From a virus (taxonomy: Duplodnaviria > Caudoviricetes), in IMG/VR virus record IMGVR_UViG_3300028863_000011, positions 1-28,562 of that record: DNA of 28,562 nt. One strand, written 5' to 3'. Both the position numbers and the translations under genes were made by a program. Below are positions 8,364-24,693 of the stretch, one piece after another. A model generated the notes under the pieces. The model was not told the DNA's origin. It searched no databases and saw only the letters and a program-made list of their open reading frames with translations. How positions within the stretch are numbered: position 1 is the first letter of the stretch; every line of letters starts with the position of its first letter.

Positions 8364-9377
8364 ATGACCATGAAAGACTCTCAGCTTATCGCCCAGCTTG
8401 CCTCGCGCGGTGTCGTGCTGGCCCCGGGTGTGACCGACATCTCGACCCCCTCCAGTGCTTACGCGATGGACGCAGCGAGCCTGACGCCGACCCTTATCGG
8501 CACCCCGAACGCGGGTATCCCCACGTTCCTGACCACCTACGTTGACCCAAAGGTGATCGAAGTCCTCGTCGCCCCGATGAAGGCCGCCGAGATTGTCAGC
8601 GAGTCCAAGAAGGGCGACTGGACCACCTTGACGGCTGCCTTCATCCAGGCTGAGCCGACCACACGTGTCGCCACCTACGGCGACTATTCGTCGGACGGCA
8701 CCAGCAACACGAACGTCAACTATCCGCAGCGCCAGTCCTACTTCTTCCAGACCTGGACCCGTTGGGGTCAGCGCGAGCTGGCCATGGCCGGCGCGGGCCG
8801 TGTGGATTGGGCCGCCCAGCTCAACTATTCCAGCGCGCTGGGTATCGCCAAGTTCCTGAACTCAACGTACCTGTTCGGCGTGGCTGGCCTGCAGAATTAC
8901 GGCCTGACCAACGACCCGCGCCTCGTGGCCCCGGTAGCCGCTCCGGTCAACTGGGCAACCGCAACCCCGGATGCGATCTACAACGACATCGTGACCAGGT
9001 ACGGCCAGCTGGTCACCCAGTCGGCGGGCATCATCGAGCAGGAAGACGAGCTGCGCCTGGCCGTCGCTCCGAGCGCAGCAGCCAACCTCAACAACACGAA
9101 CATCTATGGTCTGTCCGCCGCCAAGCTGATTCGCGACGCGTTCCCCAAGATGTCCATCGTCACCGTGCCGGAGTTCGACACGGCTGCCGGCCGCCTGGTG
9201 CAGCTGTGGGCACCGGTCATCGAGGGTCAGGAATCGGCAACCTGTTCGTTTACCGAGAAGATGCGCGCGCATGCGATCGAGACGTACAGCTCGTACTACC
9301 GCCAGAAGAAAAGCGCCGGATCGTGGGGTGCAGTGATCTTTCGTCCTCTGGCGTGTGCACAGACCCTTGGGGTGTAG
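8364..9377 (+). CDS. Major capsid protein (DUF2184-like)
   Basis: AMDAA, NAGIPTFLTTYVDPKVIEVL, KKGDWT and YGLTNDP motifs; strong codon bias; followed by a terminator. Confidence 0.9.
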   Translation: MTMKDSQLIAQLASRGVVLAPGVTDISTPSSAYAMDAASLTPTLIGTPNAGIPTFLTTYVDPKVIEVLVAPMKAAEIVSESKKGDWTTLTAAFIQAEPTTRVATYGDYSSDGTSNTNVNYPQRQSYFFQTWTRWGQRELAMAGAGRVDWAAQLNYSSALGIAKFLNSTYLFGVAGLQNYGLTNDPRLVAPVAAPVNWATATPDAIYNDIVTRYGQLVTQSAGIIEQEDELRLAVAPSAAANLNNTNIYGLSAAKLIRDAFPKMSIVTVPEFDTAAGRLVQLWAPVIEGQESATCSFTEKMRAHAIETYSSYYRQKKSAGSWGAVIFRPLACAQTLGV

Positions 9378-9400
9378 TCGTTAACGATAGTTTAACGTTT

Positions 9401-9430
9401 AGAAAGGCCCGGCTCATGCCGGGCCTTTCT
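9401..9430. terminator. Bidirectional rho-independent terminator
   Basis: Perfect 13 bp inverted repeat AGAAAGGCCCGGC-TCAT-GCCGGGCCTTTCT between convergent genes. Confidence 0.85.
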
Positions 9431-10931
9431 GCATCCAACGCCACAGTTTCTTCCCGCTGTCCCACATGCGAAAAGCGTTCACGGCGTCCTCGATGTCCCA
9501 TTCGGTACGGAGATCAGTCGCGGGATCGAATGCCAAGTCGGTGCGGCCTATCTGTCGCAGCCGCGCCGGCAGTTGTTTACGGGCCCAGGAACTCTTAGGC
9601 CGGAAGCCGAGTGCATGGTGATACACGCGATAGTCAGGCGGGATCTCGCGCGCCAGCTCGAAGCCCATGTGTGCGTACGTGCCGCCGTCGAACCAGTCGT
9701 TGGCGGAGTAGGAAACAACTTCGCGGCAGCCCAGCGTGCGCACGGCGTGCGCGAATAACTTGGATGCGCCGCCCCGCACGCGCGCTGACGTAGCGAACCG
9801 CGTGAGATCCCACACGCCCGACTCGACGCGGTTGCGGTCATAAGCGTCCTTAGCTAACGTCATCACCGCGACCAGGCCGTGCGCGGGGTGCACGAGTCCG
9901 AACCGGTGTGCATAGACTGCGCCCGGCTGCTGCGGGTGGTGACGATCGAGAAACGCTACCGTTTCGGTATTAGGAATCGGCTCAACCGTGCAATCGCGAG
10001 CATGCAGCGCCGGACGGTTGTCGCAGCCCAGCGCCGCCCGTAGCAGATTCTCGAAAGGCGCCCGCCGCTCGGTCCAGTCCTTGCAGGCAATGGCGATCAG
10101 CCGGTAGCCCGCAGCCTTGCACGCTTGATGCTTAATACGTGCTGCGGCCCGCTCGCGCGTGCGCCGATCGGAATGCCAGTACACGTCATTTAGCTCAATA
10201 GCTACGCCACGCGACGGCACGACGATGTCTAGTTCTTTCGGCTTGATGATGGTCCGATCGGACTGGTAGGCGTCAGGACAGAGCGCCTGCACGAAAGCGA
10301 ACAGGTCGCACTCGGTCGGTGAAGGGGCGCCGCTGACGCATTTTTGGCACCCGTAGCCGTGTCCGTGGTTTGCAGGAGTCTGCTCGAATGGTCCGTGTTT
10401 AGGGCAGACGATGGTGACTTTGTCGAGTGCCTGGCGGTAGACCGTCTGCGAGTAGTTGTATTTGTCGCCATGGGCGGCGCGCGCACGTTCCACGAAATGC
10501 GCCAAGTCTTTCTGGCGCCCCGCTGCTTTGCGCAGGTTTCCGCATGCGGGGCAGCCTCGCCCCTGTGTGTGCCAGCCTGCTACCTGCTTGAAAGGACCGT
10601 GCGCTGCACAGCCTATCGCCACACATAGCTGATCGCCGCGATATTCCACGTGGCTATAGTCATACAGGTCACCATGCACTGCGCGGGCTTTGACGATCCA
10701 AGCTGGCGTGTCGAAGCGCTGCCTATCACCGCGCGCGATGTAGCTGCATTCTCGGCAATGGTCGCCTTCAGCGTGCTTGCCCGCCGCTTGCTTGAAGGGT
10801 CCGTGATCCGGACAGATGATGGTGATCTTGGCCTTGCCGCCGTGGATCGTCTGCGGCGGATAGGTGTAGCGGTCGCCGTGTTTTGCGGCGAAACGAGCCA
10901 GCCAGGTTTCTGTGGTGATAGGTGCGTTCAT
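9414..10931 (-). CDS. Zn-finger-repeat endonuclease-like protein (DUF723-like repeats, Vsr/PD-(D/E)XK-like nuclease, GNAT-like C-terminus); probable homing endonuclease
   Basis: Three CxxHGPFxQ...H..G..CxxC repeats, ELDIVVPSRGVAIELNDVYWHS, and C-terminal LTRFAT...GGASKLF...VSYS...GGTYAHMGF. Confidence 0.7.
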   Translation of the reverse strand: MNAPITTETWLARFAAKHGDRYTYPPQTIHGGKAKITIICPDHGPFKQAAGKHAEGDHCRECSYIARGDRQRFDTPAWIVKARAVHGDLYDYSHVEYRGDQLCVAIGCAAHGPFKQVAGWHTQGRGCPACGNLRKAAGRQKDLAHFVERARAAHGDKYNYSQTVYRQALDKVTIVCPKHGPFEQTPANHGHGYGCQKCVSGAPSPTECDLFAFVQALCPDAYQSDRTIIKPKELDIVVPSRGVAIELNDVYWHSDRRTRERAAARIKHQACKAAGYRLIAIACKDWTERRAPFENLLRAALGCDNRPALHARDCTVEPIPNTETVAFLDRHHPQQPGAVYAHRFGLVHPAHGLVAVMTLAKDAYDRNRVESGVWDLTRFATSARVRGGASKLFAHAVRTLGCREVVSYSANDWFDGGTYAHMGFELAREIPPDYRVYHHALGFRPKSSWARKQLPARLRQIGRTDLAFDPATDLRTEWDIEDAVNAFRMWDSGKKLWRWMQKGPA

Positions 10932-10985
10932 GGCTTCAGGTTATCACGTCTGACGCGTGGGGCGCAATGCTTAGCACAGCACTCA

Positions 10986-10997
10986 GTTTGATATGCT
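10986..10997 (+). promoter_or_regulatory. Extended -10 type promoter motif, copy 1
   Basis: GTTTGATATGCT (TG-n-TATGCT), identical to 12277-12288. Confidence 0.55.
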
Positions 10998-11003
10998 AGT
11001 GTC

Positions 11004-11075
11004 GTTTGAGACCTCCGGCGGAGTGGGCGCCGCCGCAGCTCGAACAGGAAGGCCGCCGCAAGGCGGCCTTTCTTT
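11004..11075 (+). ncRNA. Candidate small structured non-coding RNA
   Basis: Starts 7 nt after the -10 box; stems GTTTGAG/CTCGAAC and GGCGG/CCGCC; ends in a terminator hairpin; no credible ORF inside. Confidence 0.5.
11049..11075 (+). terminator. Rho-independent terminator
   Basis: AAGGCCGCC-GCAA-GGCGGCCTT then TCTTT; GNRA loop. May also terminate the leftward transcript. Confidence 0.85.
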
Positions 11076-11289
11076 ATGACACGGTGATGCGCACGACTCC
11101 CCCACCCGTAGCATGCAACCAGCGGCTTTGGATAGCACTTGGTTGGTTATGGACCCAACTGTCACCAGGCGTCCGCATGCGCCAAGCAATAAAGGCAGCC
11201 TGCGCGGTCGGGCCGCAACCACACCAGCGACCATCCGCGCAGTACCATGCTGGGTAGTGTTTTGACTTGGTGAGATGCGGCTTGTTCAT
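11074..11289 (-). CDS. Hypothetical protein
   Basis: 71 aa, ATGA-coupled to the upstream gene, ends at the terminator. Confidence 0.55.
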   Translation of the reverse strand: MNKPHLTKSKHYPAWYCADGRWCGCGPTAQAAFIAWRMRTPGDSWVHNQPSAIQSRWLHATGGGVVRITVS

Positions 11290-11705
11290 CGTGGGCCGCC
11301 ATAGGGCGGACCACTAAAGTACGTAGGCGCAGGCGTGCGGCGCCGGATGCCATAAAGCCCCGCAACCTCATCCAATGCTGCACCGCTAGCTACTTGGACG
11401 GCCGCAGCCCGTTCGGCCGCAGCGCCGCAGCCCGCCATGATGCCTAGCAAGCGCTCGCGCAGCTCGTCGTCGGACTCGACAGCGGGCGCGGGCGCAGCCT
11501 TCGGCGCTAGCGTGCGGCCTAGCGTGATGTTCTTGCTGGCCCGCACGTGCCGGTTGGCGTACGTCCAGACCTCGCCGGTCTCGGTGATGAAGATCGTCCA
11601 GTACAGATCTGATTCCGGGCCGTAGTCGATCAGCAGGTGCGCGAAGCCTTCGCCCTTTGGGCAGGTCATCGGCAGTGGCGGGTTGAGCTGCAGGGCGGTG
11701 CTCAT
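11286..11705 (-). CDS. Hypothetical protein
   Basis: 139 aa ORF in a tightly packed operon with genome-like codon usage. Confidence 0.75.
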   Translation of the reverse strand: MSTALQLNPPLPMTCPKGEGFAHLLIDYGPESDLYWTIFITETGEVWTYANRHVRASKNITLGRTLAPKAAPAPAVESDDELRERLLGIMAGCGAAAERAAAVQVASGAALDEVAGLYGIRRRTPAPTYFSGPPYGGPR

Positions 11706-11706
11706 A

Positions 11707-11997
11707 TCAGCGTGTCCATCGTTCGCGTTCCTCTAGCATGGCCGGTGTCAGGGCCGGATTGTGGTCGCACCAGCGCGAGCCGCGCCGATGCGGAAAGTGA
11801 TAACCCTGGCAGCCCGAACGGTCGGGCCGGCAAGTGTCCTTGCGGTGCCGCTCGTGCGCCTGGCGCCACCCGTCGACCCGTAGCAGCCCTTTGCCGCAGT
11901 GCCGGCACTTAGGCGGACGCACATAGGACTCAGGGTGCCAGCGGATCGTCTGGCGGGCCTGGCAGGCTTTGCGGCGGCAGCGACAGGGCCAGCTCAC
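11707..11997 (-). CDS. Cys/His-rich hypothetical protein (putative Zn-binding)
   Basis: CRCRRKAC, CRHC and C...CQGYHFPHRRGSRWC; GTG start 2 nt after the upstream stop. Confidence 0.65.
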   Translation of the reverse strand: MSWPCRCRRKACQARQTIRWHPESYVRPPKCRHCGKGLLRVDGWRQAHERHRKDTCRPDRSGCQGYHFPHRRGSRWCDHNPALTPAMLEERERWTR

Positions 11998-11999
11998 GG

Positions 12000-12200
12000 C
12001 TAAGCCGCCGTGAGCGCGGATTCAACCATGTTCATTTCGCGACTGACCGGCTTACCCTTCTCGTTGACCTGCACCACGCCGTAGATGTGCTCGCCGACCG
12101 TTTCCGACCAGCGATGGCCCATTACCACGAAAACGCCATAATGACGGCCGTTGACCGCCTGGTGGGTGCAAAACTTGGCTTCGGGAATCATCGTGGTCAT
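12000..12200 (-). CDS. Hypothetical protein
   Basis: AGGAG RBS before ATG 12200, downstream of a sigma70 promoter. Confidence 0.75.
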   Translation of the reverse strand: MTTMIPEAKFCTHQAVNGRHYGVFVVMGHRWSETVGEHIYGVVQVNEKGKPVSREMNMVESALTAA

Positions 12201-12226: not shown

Positions 12227-12255
12227 AGCTTAGGCGCACCTCACGGCGATGTCAA
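12227..12255 (-). promoter_or_regulatory. Sigma70-like promoter
   Basis: Minus strand TTGACA-17 nt-TAAGCT. Confidence 0.7.
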
Positions 12256-12276
12256 CAACTATTCTAGGCTCATTTT

Positions 12277-12288
12277 GTTTGATATGCT
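12277..12288 (+). promoter_or_regulatory. Extended -10 type promoter motif, copy 2, upstream of head-tail genes
   Basis: GTTTGATATGCT in the divergent intergenic region. Confidence 0.55.
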
Positions 12289-12330: not shown

Positions 12331-12708
12331 ATGCCCGCTCCCAAGCGTTCCGCTAAGACCGTTTCCATCGCCTGCAAACTGCCGCAGGGCCTGACCGTTC
12401 ACCTGCTCGCTGCCGATGGTACCGCCGGCCCGGTGGTCAAGCTGCACGGCGCCAATTCGCCGTTCAACATCGCCGGCCATGGCATCACCCAGAATGTGCC
12501 GGTCGAGCACTGGGAAGCCATCCAGAAGCAGCATGCGCATGCGCTGTGGCTCAAGAACGAGTTCGTGTTCGCCAACGGCGACGGCGACGATCTGATCGAG
12601 GAAGCCAACGACAAGACCAAGAACCGTAACGGGTTCGAGGCGATCGACCCGAACAATCTGCCGGGTGTGATCCAGAACGACGGCGAAGACGATCCGGGCA
12701 AGGCTTAA
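12331..12708 (+). CDS. Conserved virion-module hypothetical protein
   Basis: GGAG RBS; ACKLPQGL...LHGAN...GITQNVP pattern resembles the gene usually found after the capsid gene in this phage type. Confidence 0.7.
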   Translation: MPAPKRSAKTVSIACKLPQGLTVHLLAADGTAGPVVKLHGANSPFNIAGHGITQNVPVEHWEAIQKQHAHALWLKNEFVFANGDGDDLIEEANDKTKNRNGFEAIDPNNLPGVIQNDGEDDPGKA

Positions 12709-13188: not shown

Positions 13189-13667
13189 GCGTGACTCGCC
13201 GCGGGCTGCGCCTGCCATCGAGCATGGCCGACCAGTTCAAGCCGGGCAGCGTACGCGCTGGCGTGCTATCCGGTGCGACGTATCCGGCTGCCGTGCTGAC
13301 CAACGCGGCCACAGGCGAGAAGCGCCCGGATCCGCGCGCCGGCATGCCGGTAGCGCTCATTGCCGCCGCGCTCGAATACGGCGAGGGGCAGAATCATCCG
13401 CGACCCTTCATGTCGACCACGTTTGCCAAAGAGTCCAGCACCTGGGCCAACGCGTTCACGACGCTACTAAAGAACGGCGAAGGCGCCGAGTCGGCGCTGG
13501 GCACGGTGGGCCAGGTGATGAAAGAGGACGTGCGCGCTACTGTGCTCGAATGGCCGGCAGATAACGCCGAGTCGTGGGCCGAGTTCAAGGGCTTTTCACA
13601 TGGTTTGATTCTGACCGGACACCTGTCAAACTCCATCGAGTCCGAAGTGGCCATGGGGAAAGACTAA
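13185..13667 (+). CDS. Neck/tail-completion protein
   Basis: IAAALEYG...PRPFM and LILTGHLSNSI motifs; GTGA overlap with the upstream gene. Confidence 0.7.
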   Translation: MSVTRRGLRLPSSMADQFKPGSVRAGVLSGATYPAAVLTNAATGEKRPDPRAGMPVALIAAALEYGEGQNHPRPFMSTTFAKESSTWANAFTTLLKNGEGAESALGTVGQVMKEDVRATVLEWPADNAESWAEFKGFSHGLILTGHLSNSIESEVAMGKD

Positions 13668-14230
13668 TGGAGCAGTGGAAGCCGGTTGTAGGGTTTGAAA
13701 GTCAATACGACGTGAGCAACCGGGGTCGCGTGCGGCGGCGCGCTCGCACTGTTATGCGCAGCACAGGCGCCAGTTACAAGGTGTCCGAGAAAGTATTGTC
13801 GCCCGTGACTTACGGGCACAAACGTCTTTATCTGGGTATCGGATTCAAAGTCGCGCCCAAAACTAGCCGTGTGTTTGGCGTGCATCGTTTGGTAGCTGAG
13901 GCGTTTTTGCCGAATCCCGAACAGTGGCCTGACGTTAATCACAAGAACCTCGACAAGCTGGACAACCGCGTCGAAAACTTGGAATGGTGCACCAAAGTAG
14001 CGAACCAAGAACATGCAGCAAAACGCGGTCGTTTCCACGGTCGAACCAATCCCAACGCGCGTTATAAGCTGCAGCCCGAACAGGTTGATGCGATCCAAGC
14101 GCAATTGGCTGCGGGCGCTTCGCAAGCGTTACTAGCGGCCGAATATGGCGTTTCGCGCACAATGATCAGCATGATCAAGACAGGCCGGACTTGGGCGCAG
14201 CCTGCCGAGGTGTACGCACATGTCGTGTGA
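13667..14230 (+). CDS. NUMOD4-HNH homing endonuclease with C-terminal HTH
   Basis: EQWKPVVGFESQYDVSNRGRVR (NUMOD4), VHRLVAEAFLPN...VNHKNLDKLDNRVENLEWCT (HNH), SQALLAAEYGVSRTMIS (HTH); TAATG overlap; lower GC. Confidence 0.93.
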   Translation: MEQWKPVVGFESQYDVSNRGRVRRRARTVMRSTGASYKVSEKVLSPVTYGHKRLYLGIGFKVAPKTSRVFGVHRLVAEAFLPNPEQWPDVNHKNLDKLDNRVENLEWCTKVANQEHAAKRGRFHGRTNPNARYKLQPEQVDAIQAQLAAGASQALLAAEYGVSRTMISMIKTGRTWAQPAEVYAHVV

Positions 14231-16747: not shown

Positions 16748-17179
16748 ATGGCAGGCACACTCACTGTTGCTAACTCGGTCCTCGCGATGACGACCGAGGC
16801 GCTATTCCCACAGGCCCAGCGCCTGCAGGGTTACGGCGCGGATGACGCTTTCGACTTTGAAAATGTTGAAAACGGAGAGTATTCGATGGGGATCGACGGC
16901 CAGCTGTCGGCGGGTTTCGTGTTTAACGAAATCCCCCTCGGCATCACCTTGAAGGCGGACAGCGCGTCACTGTCGCTGTTTGAGCAGATTTACCAGTACG
17001 AGGTGACCAACCGCACCAAGCTGGGGCAGAACCTGACCATTACGCTGCCGGCGGTGTCCAAGCGCTACGACCTGACGGGAGGCTTCATGCGTCGATACAA
17101 GGCGCCGAGCGGCAAGAAGATACTGCAGCCTGGTGTGGTGGAGTTCGTATTCGCTCGCCTGACGGTCAGCGCACTGTAA
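16748..17179 (+). CDS. Tail tube protein (DUF3277-like)
   Basis: Follows the sheath; LQGYGADDAF, MGIDGQLSAGFV, ITLKADSAS and KKILQP. Confidence 0.8.
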   Translation: MAGTLTVANSVLAMTTEALFPQAQRLQGYGADDAFDFENVENGEYSMGIDGQLSAGFVFNEIPLGITLKADSASLSLFEQIYQYEVTNRTKLGQNLTITLPAVSKRYDLTGGFMRRYKAPSGKKILQPGVVEFVFARLTVSAL

Positions 17180-17181
17180 CC

Positions 17182-17772
17182 ATGGCAGCGCCCACGGCCG
17201 CTGGTGTGATGTTCACGCATGGCGGCCGTGTGCTGTGGCTCAAGCGTCGCCCGTCTGCAGTACAGGGTGGGCGCTGGGGCTTTCCTGGCGGCACGATCGA
17301 GCAGGGCGAGTCGGCCGAGCAGACCGCGCGGCGCGAGACCAAAGCAGAAATCGGGCTCGATTACACCGGCCCGCTGACACCATTGTTCACAACCAAGGAC
17401 GGCTTTGCGTGTTTCGGTGCGGCGCTACCTGATGCGTTCGTGCCGGATTTGAACGACGAGCATACGGCATCGCGCTGGGCCGGCTTTGACGATCTGCCCG
17501 AGCCGGTCATCCCTTCCACCCTTACAGAGCTAGCCGATATGCCCCTCATCGAAGGCAAGAGCGATAAAGCCCGCTCGGAAAACATCAAGACCGAAATTAA
17601 AGAGGGTGGCAAGGCCCCCAAGCAGGCCGAGGCGATCGCCTACAGCGTACAGCGCAAGGCCGGCGGCAAGGATTCCAAGGGCGCGAAGGACGGCTACGAC
17701 GTGCAGGCCGCACTCATGGCGCTCACGGGCATCGCGGATGGCTACATGGCGCAGGACCGCAAGCGCAAATAA
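17182..17772 (+). CDS. Nudix hydrolase fused to a small basic phage domain
   Basis: Nudix box WGFPGGTIEQGESAEQTARRETKAEIG plus LNDEH..SRW; C-terminal MPLIEGKSDKARSENIKTEI...KQAEAIAYS module. Confidence 0.85.
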   Translation: MAAPTAAGVMFTHGGRVLWLKRRPSAVQGGRWGFPGGTIEQGESAEQTARRETKAEIGLDYTGPLTPLFTTKDGFACFGAALPDAFVPDLNDEHTASRWAGFDDLPEPVIPSTLTELADMPLIEGKSDKARSENIKTEIKEGGKAPKQAEAIAYSVQRKAGGKDSKGAKDGYDVQAALMALTGIADGYMAQDRKRK

Positions 17773-24024: not shown

Positions 24025-24693
24025 TCAGGCCCCCGCATCGCACAGATACAAGAACTGGCAGCCGGGCGATTGCAGTTCGATCAGTGCGTTAAGTGCAATC
24101 GTGCATGCGGTAGCCAGCACTTCATCACGGGCGCCGCCTACGCCGGCGTAGGCGGCGTAGGCGGCGGCGTAGGCGGCGTAGGCGGCGTAGGCGGCGGCGT
24201 AGGCGGCGGCGTAGGCGGCGTAGGCGTAGGCGTAGGTGCGTGCTACTGACTTAGCATTTAACGCAGCTTCGCGATTGCCGTCCTTTTCACACTGTCGCGC
24301 AGCTGCTTCGAGTTTCTCACTATGCGCCGGATTGCCAATCTTGGCACGTAGCGCCCGCGGCACGATCTGTCGAATAGTCTGTTCGGTCACAATGCGCACG
24401 AACTCCTGTTGATCGATGCTATCTGAACCGAGCTGCGCGACAGCCAAGCGACGCAAACCCTCGGTGCGGGCTGCATCGGAACTCCAGAGTGCGTCGTTGA
24501 TACGGATCTTGAAAATGCGCACAGCGTCGCCGACACATGTCGGCCTGTCGCTATGCGGCAAACCCATGGCGTAGCACACGGCCGCCTCGACGCACATGGC
24601 GCCTGGTGTGGGCTTACCGAGTCCGTCGACTAGCCCGGCGTCGACCGTATCGAGTACTTTGCGGGCCAACGTTTCGTTCAATTCGTAAGACAT
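24025..24693 (-). CDS. Hypothetical protein with Ala/Tyr repeat
   Basis: AAGGA RBS and upstream promoter; MCVEAAVC...HSDRPTCV...IRINDA N-terminal domain. Confidence 0.8.
   Translation of the reverse strand: MSYELNETLARKVLDTVDAGLVDGLGKPTPGAMCVEAAVCYAMGLPHSDRPTCVGDAVRIFKIRINDALWSSDAARTEGLRRLAVAQLGSDSIDQQEFVRIVTEQTIRQIVPRALRAKIGNPAHSEKLEAAARQCEKDGNREAALNAKSVARTYAYAYAAYAAAYAAAYAAYAAYAAAYAAYAGVGGARDEVLATACTIALNALIELQSPGCQFLYLCDAGA
24145..24234. repeat. Coding tandem repeat built only from GCC and TAC codons
   Basis: 90 nt of GGC and GTA triplets on the + strand, encoding YAYAYAAYAAAYAAAYAAYAAYAAAYAAYA on the - strand. Confidence 0.9.

Follow-up and report, generated by a model that had tools for sequence, protein, structure and literature searches.

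Positions 11004-11075 of a 28,562-base viral contig from IMG/VR (hereafter the window; estimated completeness 64%) carry a compact structured element that a preliminary description had read as a self-contained small RNA (sRNA) with its own promoter. Our comparison with related phages suggests, at a probability of about 60%, that this element is a conserved 3'-end module of the major capsid gene, consisting of a structured 3' untranslated region (UTR) and an intrinsic terminator, that it has been split off from its gene by a 1.6-kb homing-endonuclease cassette, and that a promoter motif at the edge of the cassette would likely still transcribe it into an RNA of ~72 nt. Where no cassette is present, the module would serve to terminate and protect the capsid mRNA and, read on the other strand, to terminate a convergent operon of small genes. 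In the phage of the window it would still end that operon and would shield the endonuclease gene from read-through. Judged from the sequence comparisons, the likeliest reading of the predicted short RNA is that of a by-product or local insulator, and a role as a trans-acting regulator of ribosome binding sites is unlikely.

The assignment to the capsid gene comes from three related loci that lack the cassette, L032, L034 and L036, in which the capsid open reading frame (ORF) ends CTC GGC GTT TGA and the module begins at the GTT. As the capsid stop in these loci abuts the module, lying inside its first hairpin, the GTTTGAG stem arm of the module corresponds to the ancestral capsid end, namely the last codon (Val), the stop and one more base. 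The capsid gene of the window (8364..9377, + strand; PHROG 264, major head protein, E = 1.3e-67) ends CTT GGG GTG TAG, with a replacement Val-stop, GTG TAG, where the cassette-free relatives have GTT TGA, and the old GTT TGA is found with the module 1.6 kb downstream, the endonuclease cassette lying between the two. No + strand gene precedes the module in the window, where the stop of a 71-aa gene abuts it on the - strand, and in L033 the stop at the module is that of a GIY-YIG gene. The unit had been described as self-contained; this does not hold, since the module makes up the 3' end of the capsid gene itself and opens with six bases that correspond to the ancestral capsid codon and stop. 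Along with the spare Val-stop, the cassette would have brought the capsid gene a spare terminator: a hairpin at 9403..9428 (AAAGGCCCGGC-TCAT-GCCGGGCCTTT; putative bidirectional terminator), which holds the endonuclease stop codon (9414-9416) in its loop and recurs at the corresponding position in the cassette of locus L050 (84% identical), would end the capsid mRNA.

The promoter-like 12-mer, the stems, the ACCTCC stretch and the GCAA-loop terminator of the preliminary description were all found where it had placed them. Hairpin 1 (11004..11045, + strand) begins with the 5' arm GTTTGA and is made up of an outer stem (GTTTGAG, 11004-11010, with CTCGAAC, 11039-11045), a variable internal loop, which in the window is ACCTCC (11011-11016), an inner stem (GGCGG, 11017-11021, with CCGCC, 11030-11034) and the loop AGTGGGCG. 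Hairpin 2 (11046..11075, + strand) has the make-up of an intrinsic terminator, with a 12-pair stem, a GNRA loop (GCAA) and a T tract directly after it (GGCCGCC-GCAA-GGCGGCC at 11051-11068, then TTTCTTT at 11069-11075), and was also called by a consensus terminator scan. For the + strand RNA from 11004 to 11079, folding predicted the two hairpins at -44.5 kcal/mol (z = -4.55), a stability reached by none of 200 shuffled sequences, and the same two hairpins were predicted for the homologues described below, with z-scores of -5.3 to -7.0. The predicted fold was more stable as + than as - strand by 6.1-12.3 kcal/mol in all four sequences tested. The stem pairs of the terminator are invariant in seven of seven sequences, and its loop is GNRA in each of them (GCAA in four; GTAA, GCGA and GGAA in one each), only the N and the R varying. 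The G-U pairs, the GNRA loop and the modelled + strand stability together favour selection on a + strand RNA.

Homologues of the module were sought by pattern scans and protein-guided scans of viral contigs. The module is present in eight further viral records, two of which are identical to the window at the module region, giving seven distinct sequences including that of the window, and all eight loci with a capsid identity of at least 82% are module-bearing contigs. A covariance model of the module (R1) was run over 78 sources, from which L035 was excluded as a duplicate of L031; its matches, at 86.9-105.4 bits, were confined to the module-bearing contigs, the next match scoring 25.9 bits, and no more distant homologue was found in the 78 sources. 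Within the window the model gave a weak - strand match at 9395-9469, overlapping the cassette-borne hairpin. A blastn search of positions 10700-11400 against cultured phage records returned no match. Scanning metagenomes with the 18-mer TCGAACAGGAAGGCCGCC gave at least 120 loci in 17 of 64 parts, with the module in none of those listed, and a terminator-pattern scan of a genome collection gave four matches, all of them generic terminators of metagenome-assembled genomes, with the module in none. Contigs from four of the 24 listed runs contained the identical sequence only, with no empty-site or variant contig among them.

Over the 21 pairs that can be formed from the seven sequences, the mean pairwise identity of the module is 92.6%, versus 83.8% for capsid DNA and 62.8% for four-fold capsid sites; measured against these values, the module is under strong purifying selection. 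Conservation ends abruptly on both sides of the hairpins, the 3' limit being the end of the T tract, and ~11 differences were counted by hand between the window and L034 in the last 45 capsid bases. Between the window and L033 the module shows no difference at all (100% identity), while the capsid genes differ by 14.5%. The claim of a structured element ending in a terminator thus stands, with both the conservation and the stable fold behind it. Three changes among the relatives preserve the structure: C-G has become U-A in L024, the inner stem of L030 is shortened by a paired one-base deletion, and in L029 a four-pair middle helix has been re-paired (UCGU/AUGA).

The DNA that separates capsid gene and module in the window holds a free-standing homing-endonuclease-like gene of 505 aa (9414..10931, - strand), whose product matches PHROG 559 'HNH endonuclease' (E = 1.8e-85) and PHROG 3339 'homing endonuclease' (E = 6.6e-54). 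Its N-terminus has three ~55-aa Cys-containing repeats (HGD.Y.Y ... CP.HGPF.Q ... C..C) and its core a Vsr-like block (ELDIVVP...IELNDVYWH); in Pfam it matched only REase_MTES_1575, a Vsr-like restriction-endonuclease domain, at 18.5 bits and under the 38.2 cut-off of that family, the PHROG label being HNH, and no match was found in NCBIfam or among PDB sequences. Among the seven module-bearing lineages the gene occurs in the window type and L050 only (84% aa identity), and in L050 the cassette likewise lies between the replacement Val-stop and the old GTT TGA. At the same junction L033 has a 309-aa GIY-YIG gene that reads into the old GTT TGA, and L037 has a 326-aa ORF with no assigned function. 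The site is therefore polymorphic for presence and absence at a fixed position, with the endonuclease in the window type and L050, no cassette in L032, L034 and L036, and other genes in L033 and L037. With three different cassettes at one junction, the last codon of the capsid gene is, on this comparison, a hotspot for mobile cassettes. Distant homologues of the endonuclease (L005-L007) lie in AT-rich, unrelated phages and show nothing comparable. We also observed that the GIY-YIG ORF of L033 (5500-5527) ends FAYIEAV-stop, where its homologues end KFEYT-stop, KFEYV-stop or RFVYV-stop, and that it appears to overrun the usual stop of its family and to use the ancestral capsid GTT TGA.

The promoter-like 12-mer at the cassette edge, GTTTGATATGCT (10986..10997, + strand), is of the extended -10 type, with TG at 10989-10990 and the -10 hexamer TATGCT at 10992-10997, and ends 6 nt before G11004. 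Its only other exact copy in the window (12277..12288, + strand) is the promoter-like motif of the head-tail operon, 43 nt before the ATG at 12331. Both fit the motif GTTTGnTATGCT, which is conserved upstream of the head-tail operon of relatives and has the layout TGn + TAnnnT, with a variable base after TG. All six loci keep it, as GTTTG[A/C/G]TATGCT in L015 and L017-L019, as GGTTTGCTATTCT in L016 and as TTTGCTAGACT in L020. The pattern TTTGNTANNCT has eight matches in five related records, five of them at head-tail promoters, two at cassette edges and one ahead of the first structural gene, versus a single match in the same records for the reversed-pattern control. In L029 the orthologous cassette edge reads TTTGATAAGCT, likewise ending 6 nt before GTTTGAG. 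On this arrangement a + strand transcript of ~72 nt, starting near G11004 and ending near 11075, is plausible. Two other products were considered and rejected: a + strand gene after the promoter, as the ORF at 11006-11257 does not have the codon-position GC pattern of the real genes of the window, and read-through of a stop codon into the module, as the frame inside it is broken by indels of one or two bases among the relatives. The earlier statement that no credible gene follows the 12-mer is thereby upheld. The site ahead of the first structural gene, a third motif of the class, reads TTTGGTAGACT and was observed at 580-590 of L241 (7179-7189 of record G002), 57 nt before the first base of the window. 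It lies in an AT-rich stretch of 318 nt that is flanked by a - strand gene on one side and by the first structural gene of the + strand on the other.

On its other side the module meets a convergent operon of four small genes (11074..12200, - strand), delimited from the ORFs, from homologues at the same place in relatives and from the pattern of GC content at third codon positions. The genes encode proteins of 71 aa (11074-11289), 139 aa (11286-11705), 96 aa (11707-11997; matching PHROG 17384) and ~66 aa (12000-12200). In each of the seven lineages the module faces a convergent gene of the 71-aa family whose TAA stop lies in the T tract, and on the - strand the terminator directly follows this stop; given this layout, hairpin 2 would act as a bidirectional terminator. 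A candidate sigma-70-type promoter for the operon (12227..12255, - strand) consists of TTGACA (12255-12250), a 17-nt spacer and TAAGCT (12232-12227), and is followed by AGGAGA (12213-12208) and the ATG at 12200; its TGTCAA is at the same place in six of six loci. Positions 12227-12288 thus hold a back-to-back divergent pair of promoter-like elements, both of which are kept at fixed spacing in the six relatives' loci. The endonuclease gene has a candidate promoter of its own (10938..10967, - strand), with TTGCGC, an 18-nt spacer and TGaTAACCT, its ATG lying 7 nt after the -10 element; both blocks are conserved in L004/L029 (TTGCGC ... TGcTAACCT), and the gene has no Shine-Dalgarno sequence. This suggests transcription from its own extended -10 promoter into a leaderless mRNA.

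Several observations weigh against reading the element as a split capsid 3' end that is still transcribed. That the short RNA is a by-product is the default reading. None of the runs listed as containing the stretch is an RNA run, all 24 being peat-metagenome DNA, from which the present sequence may itself derive. Covariation, which the preliminary description had proposed as a test, is uninformative: conservation and the three structure-preserving changes agree with the fold, but 25 of 28 pairs never vary, one pair changes on both sides, and the score itself is statistically empty, as the observed covariation score was reached in 46 of 500 shuffles and the paired percentage in 66 of 500. The near-invariant 8-nt loop and the linker ACAGGAA meet no obvious need of a simple terminator, and hairpin 1 is intact in lineages in which the module is detached from the capsid gene; together these leave room for a further function, either as RNA or as DNA. 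On the promoter side, the repetition of the 12-mer is not significant by itself, given that the window has 154 distinct repeated 12-mers versus 66.9 +/- 11 in Markov-1 simulations; it is the only AT-rich repeat (GC of at most 4 in 12), and 33% of simulations produced one or more of this kind. The 12-mer therefore draws its weight from the conservation of the motif in relatives and not from the repeat. A simple duplication of the divergent promoter region was rejected as its source, there being no homology between the flanks of the two copies (score 12 versus 12.1 +/- 2.1 in shuffles), which leaves motif conservation as the sole basis for a promoter function.

The best placed of the alternatives, though an unlikely one, is that the module yields a discrete 3'-UTR-derived sRNA, released from the abundant late capsid mRNA in cassette-free phages, made from its own promoter in endonuclease-bearing phages, and recognising a partner through the invariant loop AGUGGGCG. 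An identity far above the neutral level with sharp boundaries, a favoured + strand fold with a GNRA loop, and a structure kept after detachment from the capsid gene, as in the paired deletion of L030 and the re-paired helix of L029 (both cassette-bearing), would all fit such an RNA. So would the spacing of the upstream hexamer, as a TAnnnT sequence ends exactly 6 nt before the first G of the module in four of four cassette-bearing sequences (TATGCT, TAAGCT, TATACT and TATATT), where the cassette-free relatives have CAGACT, CAGACC or GCCACC. In its boldest form, which we hold just as doubtful, selection would have placed a promoter of the late type at exactly 6 nt upstream once the cassettes had cut the module off, so that the 72-nt RNA continued to be made, and a riboregulator would have been kept through repeated invasions by mobile elements with the loop as its recognition surface. 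Against this, the TATATT of L033 is made up of C-terminal codons of the GIY-YIG gene, whose homologues end TAT ACT TGA, TAC GTG TGA or TAC GTT TGA, and the L037 sequence, TATACTgcaagc, is 10/12 identical to the end of a gene in L054, so that the cassette ends may share ancestry; two of the four hexamers may thus be accounted for by last codons of the GIY-YIG gene. In both L033 and L037 a + strand gene lying upstream has the module as its 3' end and would carry it in its transcript in any case, the duplex scan of the window described below found no target, and a terminator role for the convergent operon already explains part of the conservation. The same hexamers were noted at L030 (~2145-2168; TATACT-gcaagc, ending 6 nt before the module and matching the L054 GIY-YIG gene end at 10 of 12 positions) and at L025 (~2940-2964; TATATT-gaggcc, within the last codons of the GIY-YIG gene).

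Somewhat less likely still, the unit could be an insulator, in that polymerase starting from 10986-10997 and the complementary 72-nt RNA would block or destroy read-through from the small-gene operon, leaving the endonuclease to be expressed only from its own weak promoter. The - strand operon does run into the module, with the endonuclease gene beginning 73 nt beyond; the terminator read on the - strand has the poorer U tract, UUCCUGUU; and the separate candidate promoter of the endonuclease gene is conserved. A review of T4 homing endonucleases describes free-standing endonuclease genes as held at low expression by terminators and promoter arrangement (PMC2988022). What tells against the proposal is that the whole of it is drawn from the layout of the genes.

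We consider it quite improbable that the module acts at the level of DNA, flanking a homing site, spreading with the cassettes by co-conversion or being bound as DNA, with the 12-mer a chance or passenger match. This would account for three types of cassette at exactly one junction, for a module that is identical in the window and L033 despite the divergence of their capsid genes, and for a 12-mer repeat that is not significant alone. However, the high identity is limited to the hairpins and abrupt on both sides, the module is equally well kept in cassette-free lineages, the G-U pairs and GNRA loop point to selection on + strand RNA, and the motif recurs at the orthologous promoters of relatives.

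The last alternative is that of the preliminary description, a late-expressed, self-contained trans-acting sRNA of ~72 nt whose ACCUCC occludes Shine-Dalgarno sequences, whose GGA motifs titrate CsrA/RsmA, or which serves as a decoy for a defence protein. In its favour are the promoter-like motif 6 nt upstream and the strong terminator downstream, the stable predicted fold, the strong purifying selection, and the invariance of both GGA motifs (GCGGAGU and CAGGAAG) in seven of seven sequences. However, ACCTCC lies in the most variable stretch of the module (positions 8-13), where the variants ACCTCGC, TCCTCGC, TCTCCGC and ACACTGC occur and where the homologues are predicted to be paired in part or in full. 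L029, alone among the other lineages in having the promoter motif, carries a base-paired TCGTTGC in its place. The sequence had been called unpaired; it is present as described, but the predicted fold pairs it in part (C10-G35 and U11-A34), and an anti-Shine-Dalgarno role is hard to reconcile with the least conserved stretch. The GGA motifs are only two in number and lie in or against predicted stems, and no CsrB/Rsm-type family was matched in Rfam, where the whole window gave no match at gathering thresholds and positions 10850-11200 at E <= 10 gave chance-level matches only (E >= 0.22; Phe_leader best at the E-value threshold, E = 0.58). A duplex scan of both strands of the window for targets of the RNA found no site above the GC-rich background (mean -23.9, standard deviation 5.2, top -42.4), the top sites lying in coding sequence. 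In the three cassette-free lineages, moreover, the unit is a plain capsid 3' UTR without a promoter. We hold this the least likely of the explanations considered. One site from the scan is recorded here for itself: the start region of gene 17182 (17171-17210, + strand; ATGGCAGCGCCCACGG) is complementary to the module loop, with a duplex of -40.4 kcal/mol that ranks near the top of ~11,400 windows and falls within the GC-rich background.

By analogy, the closest described layout is that of segD in phage T4. According to a review, this gene is lodged in antisense orientation between capsid genes 23 and 24 and has a terminator on either side, and invading endonucleases are said there to be able to displace or introduce promoters (PMC2988022; Edgell, Gibb & Belfort 2010). 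As with segD, the endonuclease gene of the window lies antisense by the major capsid gene, is flanked by predicted terminators and is patchily distributed among relatives. Unlike segD, it is inserted at the last codon of the capsid gene, with a spare Val-stop and terminator, and unlike the T4 Seg and Mob proteins its product fits PHROG 559 and 3339 and has a Vsr-like core, its homing being putative. Mobile ORFs of fungal mitochondria substitute a new 3' end for that of the host gene, whose old end is left in place. The same is described for yeast WHO elements at FBA1 (Coughlan et al. 2020, PMC7282813). As in WHO elements, the inserted cassette of the window supplies a new gene end and the old end stays downstream; unlike in WHO elements, only one codon and the stop have been replaced, and the old end is not decaying, as the convergent operon would still depend on its terminator and selection continues to act on its hairpins.

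Bidirectional Rho-independent terminators between convergent genes are a textbook type, and the module resembles them in having a GC-rich stem, preceded by purine-rich sequence and followed by a T tract, between convergent stops. Unlike them, it has an additional, equally conserved upstream hairpin that holds one of the stop codons, and its conservation exceeds the needs of the stem. The 6S RNA of phage lambda is a short promoter-to-terminator transcript of the lambdoid late region. StxS is likewise described as a short transcript of a lambdoid late region (Sy et al. 2020, PMC7547250). The unit in the window is like these in having a late-type promoter motif and a strong terminator within ~70 nt, which would give a short RNA that is either a by-product or a regulator. 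It differs in being followed on the + strand by 1.2 kb antisense to four small genes, beyond which the head-tail operon has its own promoter motif, and in having arisen by insertion of a cassette and being no part of an antitermination switch, a Q-like gene not having been searched for; it is thus not a terminated leader directly upstream of late genes in the manner of lambdoid PR'-tR'. CpxQ and SroC are 3'-UTR-derived sRNAs of enterobacteria. As with these, the short RNA would share the terminator of an mRNA and could arise either through processing or through transcription from an internal promoter; unlike them, the module gave no evidence of processing, Hfq binding or a seed region.

The window encodes, by PHROG assignment, terminase, portal, protease, major head protein, tail sheath and replication proteins. 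The nearest cultured phages by capsid protein are the Ralstonia phages PQ43W, Jenny and Bakoly (~74% identity), and the capsid proteins of Burkholderia phages Bcep1, Bcep781, Bcep43 and BcepNY3 are ~65% identical to that of the window; by these comparisons the clade is an uncultured one related to the Ralstonia and Burkholderia phages, and the phage a small myovirus akin to Bakoly and Bcep781. Directly after the capsid stop, the window has a direct repeat of tcgTTAACgatagTTTAACg (9378-9400), and at least eight other relatives (L033, L037, L038, L047, L054, L059, L065 and L101) have similar duplicated 5-7-mers (TTAACC, TTCACAC, GTAACAC) behind the capsid stop. In several of them (e.g. L033, L054 and L059) a GGTGTG further downstream could pair with the second copy; from its sequence, this region may represent a capsid 3' UTR of a second kind, alternative to the module. 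Elsewhere in the window, a second endonuclease-like gene lies among the head-tail genes (13574-14230, + strand; PHROG 59 'HNH endonuclease', E = 5.2e-47), and a tandem array of 9- to 12-base units (CGGCGTAGG...) occupies 24144-24225 within a - strand ORF (24025-24693).

Taken together, our analysis points to a 72-nt non-coding island that is conserved far above the neutral level in these phages and that would have belonged to the capsid gene before a mobile cassette separated the two. A convincing "sRNA", complete with promoter, hairpin and terminator, can arise as the leftover 3' end of a gene split by a cassette, which calls for caution in sRNA prediction. If the short RNA should prove functional, it would be a rare example in phages of a 3'-UTR-derived regulator with an acquired promoter.

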